DNA of 5,021 nt from IMG/VR virus record IMGVR_UViG_2534681835_000017, positions 1 to 5,021 of that record; one strand, given 5' to 3'. Both the position numbers and the translations under genes were made by a program. Every line of letters starts with the position of its first letter. The stretch's first letter is position 1. Positions 2 through 757 of the stretch are shown in pieces. The DNA comes from a virus (taxonomy: Duplodnaviria; Heunggongvirae; Uroviricota; Caudoviricetes). A model generated the notes under the pieces. That model saw only the letters and a list, made by a program, of their open reading frames with translations, had not been told where the DNA came from and did no database searches.

Positions 2-160
2 ACGGGCTACTGGTTCCTGCAGTTGCTGGACAGGGTTTCCCCGTCTCAGTGGGCGGCAATAGGCGTGCTGGGGAGTCTGCTGTTTGGTCTGCTGACGTAC
101 CTGACGAACCTGTATTTCAAAATCAGAGAGGACAGGCGTAAGGCGGCACGGGGAGAGTAG
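2..160 (+). CDS. S: Class II holin (pinholin, phage 21 S21 / essD-like), C-terminal 52 codons; 5' end lies outside the window
   Basis: Frame 2 translates without stops from position 2 to TAG at 158-160: [52 protein letters not shown]. From memory this closely matches the C-terminal half of phage 21 S21 (second transmembrane helix plus basic tail ...[13 protein letters not shown]). Not verified by search. Confidence 0.85.
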
Positions 161-163
161 GTG

Positions 164-721
164 ATGAACCATGAAGAAATGAATCAGCGCTTCAGTCGTC
201 TGGAAAATGAAATTGCTGAACTGAATAAAAAACTGTCGGCGCTGATGCCTTCTGAAGATGAAAAAAAACGCCGCGATGAGCAGTTTGCTGCGTTTGACGA
301 TTATTGTCGGAAAGTGATGAGCAGAAATCTCGCAGAGTGTTTCAGTATTCATAATGATAATTGCAGTGAGCTGGAATGGGAGTGTAACCGGCCATCCTTT
401 GTTGTATCCGGTGATGACGGGAAAATCACCATATCAGAAAATGGAAAAGTAACACTGCCATCGCACCAGCACAGTGAGACGCTCATTGAATTTGCCATTG
501 ATTACCTGAAGAACAATAAAAAACAGGGGCTGATGCAGCGCATTGGTCGTTGCATGGGGTATCTGCAGGTAGCCGCTGAGATTGAAGCGCTGGCCAGTGG
601 TGCTGATAAGGATGCAATTGTGCGGGAGGCTCTTCTTCGTAATTTTAATACTCCACCCTTTAAAAAAGTGCCGGCTTACTGGCTTCATCCCGGACTGACT
701 TATCTGAAAGTGCGTATTTAG
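164..721 (+). CDS. Hypothetical protein, 185 aa, inserted between holin and endolysin; function unknown
   Basis: Uninterrupted ORF to TAG at 719-721. ATG at 164 lies 3 nt after the holin stop and about 5 nt after the purine-rich GGGGAGAG (151-158), which can act as Shine-Dalgarno; GTG at 161 and ATG at 179 are alternative starts. Predicted N-terminal charged helical segment (NQRFSRLENEIAELNKKLSAL), five Cys (C-x10-C-x7-C-x6-C plus one), no hydrophobic signal or TM segment. Visibly more A/T-rich than flanking genes (several A5-A8 runs). I do not recognise the family. Confidence 0.6.
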   Translation: MNHEEMNQRFSRLENEIAELNKKLSALMPSEDEKKRRDEQFAAFDDYCRKVMSRNLAECFSIHNDNCSELEWECNRPSFVVSGDDGKITISENGKVTLPSHQHSETLIEFAIDYLKNNKKQGLMQRIGRCMGYLQVAAEIEALASGADKDAIVREALLRNFNTPPFKKVPAYWLHPGLTYLKVRI

Positions 722-757
722 TGGGCCTGGGACAGCGGCTGAATATTTAATATATCC

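Follow-up and report, generated by a model that had tools for sequence, protein, structure and literature searches.

What is the 185-codon reading frame that lies between the pinholin gene and the SAR-type lysozyme gene of this prophage, and is its presence at the junction of the two lysis genes exceptional? The window, by which we mean the whole 5,021-nt stretch of IMG/VR record IMGVR_UViG_2534681835_000017 that was analysed, had previously been given a sequence-only reading, which regarded the frame (hereafter ORF185) as an uncharacterised gene unusually inserted into a lysis cassette.

Reading frame, translation signals and flanking genes

Direct reading of the sequence gave an intact frame from the ATG at 164-166 to the TAG at 719-721 (Table 1), and RefSeq sets the start of the corresponding protein, WP_001015158.1, at the same ATG. 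This start lies 3 nt past the holin stop (TAG, 158-160), with the GTG at 161-163 in between, and is preceded by the purine run GGGGAGAG at 150-157, located within the final holin codons. For the lysozyme ATG at 758, predicted pairing between leader and anti-Shine-Dalgarno amounts to just -1.7 kcal/mol. Both the close spacing with a Shine-Dalgarno sequence in the last holin codons and an AT-rich 36-nt spacer without such a sequence ahead of the endolysin had been proposed earlier, and both are borne out by these energies (-8.5 and -1.7 kcal/mol, respectively). The supposed A/T shift of the frame was likewise confirmed, as ORF185 has a GC content of 45.0 % and a GC3 of 44 %, compared with 55 % and 71 % for the holin and 54 % and 57 % for the lysozyme.

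Table 1. Features in and around ORF185, in window coordinates
Feature	Position	Strand	Evidence or remark
S21-type class II holin (pinholin), 3' part; window begins inside gene	1..160	+	PF04971 Phage_holin_2_1, E 2.8e-21
Shine-Dalgarno GGGGAGAG	150..157	+	GGAG-to-ATG 164 distance 8 nt; anti-SD duplex -8.5 kcal/mol
ORF185 (WP_001015158.1), DUF1327-less form of the mosaic YdfR-family / PHROG 1085 slot gene	164..721	+	phrog_1085, E 2.9e-111
N-terminal acidic helical part, residues 1-62, short coiled coil	164..349	+	AF2, a/d heptad
Variable middle segment, residues 48-74, with C-x10-C-x7-C-x6-C cluster	305..385	+	cluster not conserved
Conserved basic C-terminal domain, residues 76-185: three-strand beta-meander and four helices	389..718	+	
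AT-rich 36-nt spacer, no Shine-Dalgarno, ahead of lysozyme start	722..757	+	anti-SD pairing -1.7 kcal/mol
SAR-type phage lysozyme, cut at about codon 151 of 177 by deletion	758..1209	+	PF00959, E 4.7e-23

A crude scan restricted to consensus promoters found no sigma-70-like site in positions 8300-10300 of the locus (L001), and thus no promoter-like site between holin and lysozyme; Rfam gave no match within the window. As judged from these signals, ORF185 would be transcribed solely as part of the Q-dependent late transcript, its translation would be coupled to that of the holin via the Shine-Dalgarno sequence in the final holin codons, and the lysozyme would be left with a leader devoid of such a sequence. 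The late co-expression with the holin that was predicted earlier is in line with the position in the late operon, the lack of a promoter-like site and a placement suited to translational coupling to the pinholin.

The full 71-aa holin gene is found at L001 8945-9160, annotated as 'class II holin family protein'. The lysozyme is annotated as 'lysozyme, incomplete'; its identity to an intact allele stops at 1209, where the 3' third of a gene for a J-like tail-tip protein is joined to the fragment, a junction seen once among 5426 genomes. Rz has been lost together with the terminase, head and tail genes, and an IS1 is located 3.5 kb downstream; the prophage in the window is itself defective. On the upstream side, Q, the preceding genes of the late region and the holin have been retained, so that late transcription on induction is conceivable, and ORF185 is 100 % identical to the allele of apparently complete O157:H7 prophages.

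Modules of a mosaic YdfR-family gene

Scans of ORF185 against Pfam and NCBIfam returned no family, in keeping with the earlier failure to place the protein, and PDB sequence searches with two profiles (A1 and A4) yielded nothing beyond marginal noise from coiled coils or PARP-BRCT (E of at least 0.03). The match to PHROG 1085 covers positions 117-296 of the 296-position profile; this family is annotated as of unknown function, and the other PHROGs matches likewise fell only into unknown-function families. The window protein is already known, being catalogued as WP_001015158.1 in PHROG 1085. In the literature, WP_001015158 is mentioned in no paper, and K-12 YdfR is the sole family member with experimental data (PMC13232886).

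A lead offered by the sequence-only reading was ydfR of the Qin prophage, a small ORF in the same position. Direct relatedness is ruled out by lack of similarity: BLASTP of ORF185 against K-12 YdfR (b1555, 103 aa) produced no alignment, and ORF185 did not match the DUF1327 profile PF07041 at E <= 1 (gathering score 25 bits), for which YdfR (179.9 bits) and the long form P0034 (138.4 bits) served as positive controls, placing ORF185 outside the DUF1327 family. What stands of the lead is the shared slot and, via proteins of 287-296 aa, membership of one mosaic gene. The C-terminal 180 residues of these DUF1327 (PF07041) proteins are 83-91 % identical to ORF185 at 98 % query coverage. Long "YdfR family" proteins, for instance gp05 of Stx2-converting phage 86 (YP_794052.1, 268 aa) and the RefSeq forms of 287-329 aa, combine DUF1327, the coiled coil and the C-terminal domain (C-domain), occupy the same slot, starting 3-4 nt past the stop of an S21-type holin, and in many loci have the same 36-nt pre-lysozyme spacer. 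They share 80-91 % identity with ORF185 over coiled coil and C-domain, whereas the DUF1327 domain and linker, ~110 residues in all, are missing from ORF185, which starts with the coiled coil. At two loci whose long forms sit in this holin-lysozyme slot (L003 and L004), the spacer is nearly identical to that of the window, with one base different in L004, and beyond about codon 30 the DNA of ORF185 is almost the same as that of L003.

K-12 YdfR shares the other end of the long forms, with 81 % identity to residues 1-74 of P0034. Like ORF185, it is encoded between holin (essQ) and lysozyme (rrrQ) and has the same holin-end Shine-Dalgarno sequence followed by a lysozyme without one; the leader AAATATC(C/T)ATG, similar to that of the window, is found in both Qin and Stx2 phage 86. 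In contrast to ORF185, Qin ydfR contains the shared DUF1327 part, beyond which it passes into an unrelated 34-residue tail, homology returning 6 nt before the lysozyme ATG, and its stop overlaps the lysozyme start, leaving no 36-nt spacer. K-12 YdfR is the front module (DUF1327 plus an unrelated short tail) and ORF185 the back modules of one mosaic gene, in which N-terminal, middle and hairpin segment types occur in all combinations. As to identity and architecture, we put the probability at about 0.9 that ORF185 consists of the coiled coil, variable linker and C-terminal domain modules of the mosaic YdfR-family gene.

In the N-terminal part of the protein, AF2 predicted helices at residues 3-27 and 31-62, and an a/d heptad runs through F10, L13, I17, L20, L24 and L27, of which L20 is invariant and L13 conserved in at least 90 %. 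Residues 1-75 are acidic (pI 4.85), and the N-terminal segment shows the deepest allelic divergence (dS 0.72). The charged helical N-terminus described earlier holds in its helical and acidic character, but model confidence drops along it, from block-mean pLDDT values of 84-90 (residues 1-20) to 61 and 48 (residues 41-60).

The cysteines of ORF185 are located at positions 48, 59, 67 and 74, with a fifth at 130. The spacing of the four-cysteine cluster was correctly read, but it does not constitute a conserved motif, as C67 is replaced by Phe in close alleles (P0001, P0034 and P0015) and the whole segment is swapped for an unrelated longer one in the forms of 209-221 aa. Within the E. coli set, C130 is the sole invariant cysteine and C48 is kept in at least 90 %; C130 is Ser or Ala in relatives from Salmonella. 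A metal-binding Cys4 (zinc) site is ruled out because the four cysteines are not conserved across homologues.

The C-domain is basic (pI 9.3) and was modelled by AF2 with a pLDDT of 90.7 from an alignment including the Salmonella relatives, which came from an exhaustive profile search together with a second search for homologues; the full-length model from an E. coli-only alignment had a pLDDT of 57 in the C-terminal part and was unusable there. Neither a structural nor a sequence relative of known function was found for the C-domain, and no RNA-binding or nuclease fold was recognised. R129, Q135, K167, W173 and Y180 are invariant. Since the maximum Kyte-Doolittle 19-residue mean is 0.76, ORF185 has no transmembrane segment, as had been noted before, and is a soluble protein.

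Distribution, constraint and Salmonella relatives

Among 5426 complete E. coli genomes, 879 contain ORF185 DNA and 3572 contain ydfR-type DUF1327 DNA. An occupied slot is thus commonplace among lambdoid and Stx prophages of E. coli, which contradicts the unusual insertion first supposed; because ORF185 is the back half of longer YdfR-family proteins that take up this slot in many E. coli prophages, its placement is ordinary. Each E. coli or Shigella locus reaching both neighbours showed the order holin, slot gene, lysozyme, a few loci in this survey being cut by contig ends or the flank limit. The breadth of the family is narrow: 1.84 billion proteins yielded 42 cluster representatives, and genomes representing 185,579 species yielded three loci.

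Of 80 related IMG/VR loci, 71 have an open frame; frameshifts interrupt it in seven and contig ends cut it in two. Across 44 distinct alleles, the NG86 dN/dS of ORF185 was 0.36 overall and 0.21 for residues 76-185, values in the range of 0.2-0.4 and not near 1. A non-coding spacer at 164-721 is ruled out by this dN/dS below 0.4, and no well-characterised family accounts for the protein. For holin and lysozyme, dN/dS was 0.07, that of ORF185 being ~5 times higher. ORF185 is constrained, yet accessory, and is a true gene within the late operon. At many RefSeq matches no gene is annotated, and intact long forms are often labelled in RefSeq as truncated pseudogenes; at the single locus checked (L097), RefSeq annotates merely a partial YdfR on an intact 296-aa frame. 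As this frame is intact, frequent pseudogenisation of the slot gene was rejected.

Relatives of 254-338 aa are encoded by Salmonella enterica prophages (P0129, P0161, P0163 and P0170). Their C-domains are 30-42 % identical to that of ORF185 with the same invariant residues, and they keep the architecture of N-domain, coiled coil and C-domain, the N-domain scoring below the Pfam DUF1327 threshold. These genes also lie in the Q-to-lysis late region near an S21-type holin and a lysozyme, here upstream of the holin at a gap of 170-620 nt, and holin and lysozyme overlap directly. The gene therefore belongs to the late/lysis region and not to the S-R junction, to which the sequence-only reading had tied it. 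HicAB and other cargo adjoin the Salmonella copies, which, in a further difference from ORF185, are often followed by a convergent 105-aa ORF. This phrog_1853 ORF is also found next to the gene in Stx2 phage 86, Stx2_12E129 and L052, with 41 % identity between genera, and is absent from the window and most E. coli loci.

Possible functions of ORF185

Our best guess at a mechanism is tentative: ORF185 may be a cytoplasmic, oligomeric late protein tied to an RNase E or RNA process. Lacking a hydrophobic segment, the protein would be cytoplasmic; it could self-associate through its N-terminal heptad helix, as the conserved heptad leucines suggest; its compact basic C-domain would bind a partner; and, late in infection, it would modulate host RNA decay or processing, or an RNA. 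RNA decay or processing appears the most likely process because the module is repeatedly fused to the RNase E-binding DUF1327. Two-hybrid as well as pull-down experiments showed residues 1-72 of YdfR to bind the N-terminal (catalytic) half of RNase E, and RNA co-purifies with YdfR (PMC13232886). Against the mechanism count the small effect of YdfR overexpression on the transcriptome in the same study and the lack of a recognised RNA-binding or nuclease fold. The Salmonella relatives, which retain the same architecture at 30-40 % identity, and the basic C-domain speak for the involvement of RNA, but the mapped RNase E-binding determinant is precisely what ORF185 is missing. Guilt by fusion is the sole bridge by which one study of the other module might extend to ORF185, and DUF1327 and the back modules may act independently, since both also occur alone. 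Phage proteins that target RNase E include T4 Srd, T7 gp0.7 and phiKZ Dip; a functional analogy to these through the fused DUF1327 is possible, and no homology between them and ORF185 was detected.

Compared with RNA modulation, a protein that controls the lysis proteins directly seems less probable, although the constant linkage to holin and lysozyme fits a lysis role equally well. ORF185 might bind the cytoplasmic tail of the pinholin or the SAR lysozyme before its release, or the gene might reset the holin:lysozyme translation ratio by taking the holin-end Shine-Dalgarno sequence, thereby tuning the moment or the sharpness of lysis. An S21-type holin (PF04971) and a lysozyme adjoin the gene at all loci inspected, both in E. 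coli and in Salmonella (30-40 % identity), and slot genes begin 3-4 nt past the holin stop; furthermore, the holin-end sequence serves the lysozyme in DLP12 (essD-rrrD, -7.1 kcal/mol), whereas the lysozyme leader lacks a Shine-Dalgarno sequence where a slot gene is present (-1.7, +1.1 and +0.3 kcal/mol). However, neither the position nor the takeover of this sequence is conserved, as the Salmonella gene lies upstream of a directly overlapping holin and lysozyme. Dedicated lysis regulators such as the S21-71 antiholin, LydB of phage P1 and RI and RIII of T4 have genes within or next to the holin-endolysin cassette and are co-expressed with it. ORF185 shows no membrane or periplasmic targeting and no sequence or profile similarity to any lysis family in Pfam, PHROG or NCBIfam. 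The slot gene is also absent from many S21-type cassettes, including that of DLP12 and, as far as known, those of phage 21, 933W and H-19B, and is thus dispensable for lysis; the dN/dS several-fold above that of the lysis genes points in the same direction. On balance we consider a modulator of lysis timing or balance unlikely.

Equally doubtful is a role as arms-race cargo, in which ORF185 would be a late counter-defence or a superinfection or abortive-infection factor of the moron-rich Q-to-lysis region, diversifying by module shuffling and aided in some phages by the convergent 105-aa partner. The GC and GC3 values below those of the flanks, the extensive mosaicism over three or four segments, the very narrow distribution, the HicAB and other cargo near the Salmonella copies, and the phrog_1853 ORF accompanying the gene in several phages and Salmonella would all suit such cargo. 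However, PADLOC-DB 2.0 gave no match for ORF185 or a 213-aa form, and one long form had only a marginal match (PbeC, E 0.018). The partner is missing here and from most E. coli loci, and selection is purifying, not diversifying. With no promoter-like site of its own in the consensus scan and presumed transcription with the late genes, production of ORF185 in the lysogen is improbable, and this counts against exclusion or Abi roles that protect lysogens.

We regard as quite improbable the far-reaching proposal that the basic beta-meander/four-helix C-domain is a previously undescribed fold family which, with the coiled coil, makes up the effector half of a bipartite prophage system, the targeting half of which, DUF1327, docks on the RNase E catalytic domain; the short forms would then be free-standing effectors that, minutes ahead of lysis, reprogramme the decay of RNA or translation, or a new class of soluble regulators of pinholin/SAR-endolysin lysis. 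Least likely is that ORF185 is an inert passenger, intact only since decay is recent, as the truncated and fused lysozyme, the lost genes, the single-genome junction and the nearby IS1 might suggest, because the frame is identical to that of apparently complete prophages, the upstream late region remains, and such a reading concerns this copy only and is silent on the function of the family. Nevertheless, as the prophage in the window is defective, this copy may do nothing.

ORF185 is an ordinary, widespread gene of unknown function, and no anomaly. In pathogenic E. coli, many Stx-converting and other lambdoid prophages carry a member of the family within their lysis cassette, the stretch of the genome that sets the timing of toxin and phage release. 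The analysis yields a confident model of the C-domain, and with K-12 YdfR and ORF185 recognised as modules of one mosaic gene, the RNase E-binding lead gains a concrete partner. If a role in lysis timing or late RNA metabolism proved true, it would bear on Shiga-toxin release and on the control of the phage burst.

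The slot gene and its modules

ORF185, the 185-aa reading frame between the S21-type pinholin (S) and SAR lysozyme (R) genes, is common, already listed in sequence databases and of unknown function. Pfam and NCBIfam searches gave it no family, in agreement with the sequence-only reading, and in PHROGs it falls entirely within phrog_1085 (unknown function), matching profile positions 117-296 of 296 alone. Coverage is partial because the homologues include, besides 185-221-aa forms, many proteins of 287-329 aa, which are 83-91% identical over 98% of ORF185, carry PF07041 (DUF1327) at the N-terminus and are named 'YdfR family protein'. 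These long forms occupy the same S-R slot, starting 3-4 nt past the holin stop and leaving a near-identical 36-nt spacer ahead of the lysozyme. K-12 YdfR, encoded between essQ and rrrQ of the Qin prophage, shares 81% identity with residues 1-74 of the 296-aa form, and comparison with ORF185 revealed no similarity. In the DNA, homology between Qin and a long form covers the holin and about 68 ydfR codons from the start, is then lost, and is back 6 nt before the lysozyme ATG. These comparisons therefore define the slot as one mosaic gene of separable modules, namely DUF1327, a heptad coiled coil, a variable middle and a C-domain (ORF185 residues 76-185), of which K-12 YdfR is the first plus a short unrelated tail and ORF185 the last three. 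The earlier pointer to ydfR was thus pertinent, the two being related through fusion rather than homology. Every combination of N-terminal type, middle type and hairpin subtype occurs.

AF2 models residues 1-62 as two helices (pLDDT 84-90 at residues 1-20, dropping to about 50-60 by residues 41-60) with an a/d heptad of F10, L13, I17, L20, L24 and L27, in which L20 is invariant and L13 is found in at least 90% of sequences; residues 1-75 are acidic (pI 4.85). The cysteines have the spacing described previously, C-x10-C-x7-C-x6-C (residues 48, 59, 67 and 74). A metal site at this cluster was rejected, as the segment is variable: close alleles have Phe in place of C67, and the 209-221-aa forms carry an unrelated segment instead. 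The C-domain is the conserved core, basic (pI 9.3) and modelled from an alignment including Salmonella relatives (pLDDT 90.7, pTM 0.83) as a three-strand beta-meander followed by four helices; L115, G128, R129, L134, Q135, A137, P165, K167, W173, P176 and Y180 are invariant across genera, and no relative of known function was recognisable. The protein has no hydrophobic segment, as had been read from the sequence.

Among 80 related IMG/VR loci, the frame is open in 71, frameshifted in seven and cut by a contig end in two. The selection check that had been proposed gave NG86 dN/dS values of 0.36 for the whole gene (44 distinct alleles) and 0.21 for residues 76-185, with 0.07 for both holin and lysozyme at the same loci; the frame is coding, and purifying selection acts on its product. 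The essential lysis genes on both sides are several times more tightly constrained, as expected if ORF185 is an accessory gene.

Signals, distribution and neighbours

The window derives from a defective lambdoid prophage adjoining ompW/trp in E. coli O111:H8 strain 8E (NZ_CP077465.1), where RefSeq has an identical gene model ('hypothetical protein', WP_001015158.1). Its start 3 nt past the holin stop, the purine-rich ribosome-binding site in the holin's last codons and the AT-rich lysozyme spacer devoid of an obvious Shine-Dalgarno (SD) all held up, and so did the A/T shift (GC 45.0% and GC3 44%, versus 55% and 71% for the holin and 54% and 57% for the lysozyme).

Features of the window and of compared loci (L008, Stx2 phage 86; L093 and L094, Salmonella)
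Feature	Position	Strand	Detail
S21-type class II holin, 3' end	1-160		PF04971, E 2.8e-21
Purine run GGGGAGAG	150-157		holin's last codons; anti-SD pairing for ORF185 -8.5 kcal/mol
Holin stop TAG	158-160
ORF185	164-721	+	in-frame GTG 161, ATG 164; stop TAG 719-721; 185 aa
AT-rich 36-nt spacer	722-757		then lysozyme ATG 758; anti-SD pairing merely -1.7 kcal/mol
Junction 1209/1210	1205-1215		SAR lysozyme joined to last third of J-like tail-tip gene; overlap <=1 nt
J-like tail-tip gene, 3' third	1210-2163
Side tail fibre gene	2896-4200		long collagen-like Gly-X-Y repeat block at 3640-3960
Terminator-like hairpin	about 4487-4512		with small tail-fibre C-terminal-domain gene; IS1 shortly after
IS1 element	~4680-5021		insA frame 4732-5007; RefSeq: frameshifted IS1 transposase
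Convergent phrog_1853 ORF	L008 2858-3172; L009 3154-3468	-
Convergent phrog_1853 ORF	L052 ~3573-3884	-
Convergent phrog_1853 ORF	L093 4285-4602; L094 2673-2990	-

A consensus scan found no sigma-70-like site between holin and lysozyme, and no Rfam family matched in the window; the gene is therefore expected to be carried on the Q-dependent late transcript, and its position would favour translational coupling to the holin. In the prophage DLP12, the holin-end purine run is the lysozyme's own SD (-7.1 kcal/mol). Cassettes with a slot gene have an AT-rich lysozyme leader without an SD (Qin rrrQ +1.1, Stx2 phage 86 +0.3 kcal/mol, the window as tabulated), and all three share the leader AAATATC(C/T)ATG; judging from these leaders, lysozyme translation may be reduced or SD-independent. 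At the window's genome locus, a strong terminator-like hairpin (13 pairs, then a T run; L001 8877-8906) lies just 5' of the holin, between a DUF826 gene and S, and is presumably read through by Q-modified polymerase.

Among 5426 complete E. coli genomes, ORF185 DNA was found in 879 (233 at >=80% coverage; 1216 places), ydfR-type DUF1327 DNA in 3572 (4760 places) and the window's holin allele in 2435 (8831 places). Filled S-R slots are thus commonplace in E. coli, and the direct S/R overlap of DLP12 is just one among several arrangements; what had been taken for a special insertion is normal placement. Sequenced Stx1a, Stx2 and Stx2a converting phages and other E. coli phages also carry a family gene. 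The family is rare beyond Escherichia and Shigella: 42 of 1.84 billion cluster representatives matched at E <= 0.001 in an exhaustive profile search, divergent members with a source name being from Salmonella enterica, and representative genomes of 185,579 species contained three loci only.

About half of the ORF185 DNA matches sampled in RefSeq genomes lack an annotated feature, which looks like a systematic annotation artefact rather than gene decay, judging from the one locus checked (L097, strain 222, NZ_CP020516.1). There, an intact 296-aa long-form ORF (2053-2943) appears in RefSeq/PGAP just as 'YdfR family protein, incomplete, missing C-terminus' (336 nt), the other 555 nt being unannotated. 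For gp05 of Stx2-converting phage 86 (L008 2042-2848), the GenBank note 'Homologous to COG0188: Type IIA topoisomerase A subunit' found no support in any profile or structure search.

The placement read from the sequence holds for E. coli but not for Salmonella (L090-L094). There the homologue lies upstream of the holin, in the cargo region that follows the Q antiterminator, sometimes next to HicA/HicB and a DUF4406 gene, and the lysozyme gene directly overlaps that of the holin. The gene is thus one of the late Q-to-lysis region that accompanies an S21-type holin, and its position exactly at the holin-lysozyme junction is peculiar to E. coli. Furthermore, a convergent ORF of ~105 aa (phrog_1853, unknown function; 41% identity between genera) lies directly 3' of the YdfR-family gene at several loci, which belong to a subset of E. 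coli Stx phages and to Salmonella prophages, and is absent from the window, which suggests an optional two-gene module.

Candidate functions and the window's copy

Residues 1-72 of K-12 YdfR bind the N-terminal catalytic half of RNase E (two-hybrid, pull-down), and RNA co-purifies with YdfR (PMC13232886); these RNase E-binding data belong to the DUF1327 module, not to the modules of ORF185. We tentatively propose, at a probability of about 0.3, that ORF185 would act late, as an oligomer in the cytoplasm, in that same process involving RNase E and RNA. This reading ranks highest because the coiled-coil/C-domain module, basic and cytoplasmic, is repeatedly fused to a DUF1327-type domain in two genera. 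Modulation of pinholin/SAR-lysozyme lysis is unlikely: although linkage to the lysis genes is constant and the slot gene takes over the holin-end SD, its position varies between genera, it lacks a membrane segment and it is dispensable. A role as counter-defence or exclusion cargo is equally doubtful. Low GC, mosaicism, a restricted distribution and a convergent partner at some loci would point to it, but it fits poorly with the purifying selection, with the absence of a recognisable promoter for the gene alone and with that of any defence-model match.

In strain 8E, the lysozyme is truncated: identity to the intact allele ends at window 1209 (~codon 151 of 177). The deletion takes out Rz/Rz1, terminase, head and tail genes, and farther on come lom, the side tail fibre gene with its collagen repeat, the small gene for a tail-fibre C-terminal domain, and IS1; the junction occurs in this strain only (1/5426 genomes). 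Within the collagen-like block, local GC reaches 0.67-0.70 with a strong A-over-T skew. ORF185 matches the allele of apparently complete O157:H7 prophages at 100% identity, and that it is an inert passenger, a reading confined to the window's copy, is quite improbable.

The sequence-only reading was right in observation and partly right in interpretation. What is new is the module relationship between ORF185 and YdfR, the irrelevance of the Cys cluster, a confident yet orphan C-domain model, and the synteny across genera.
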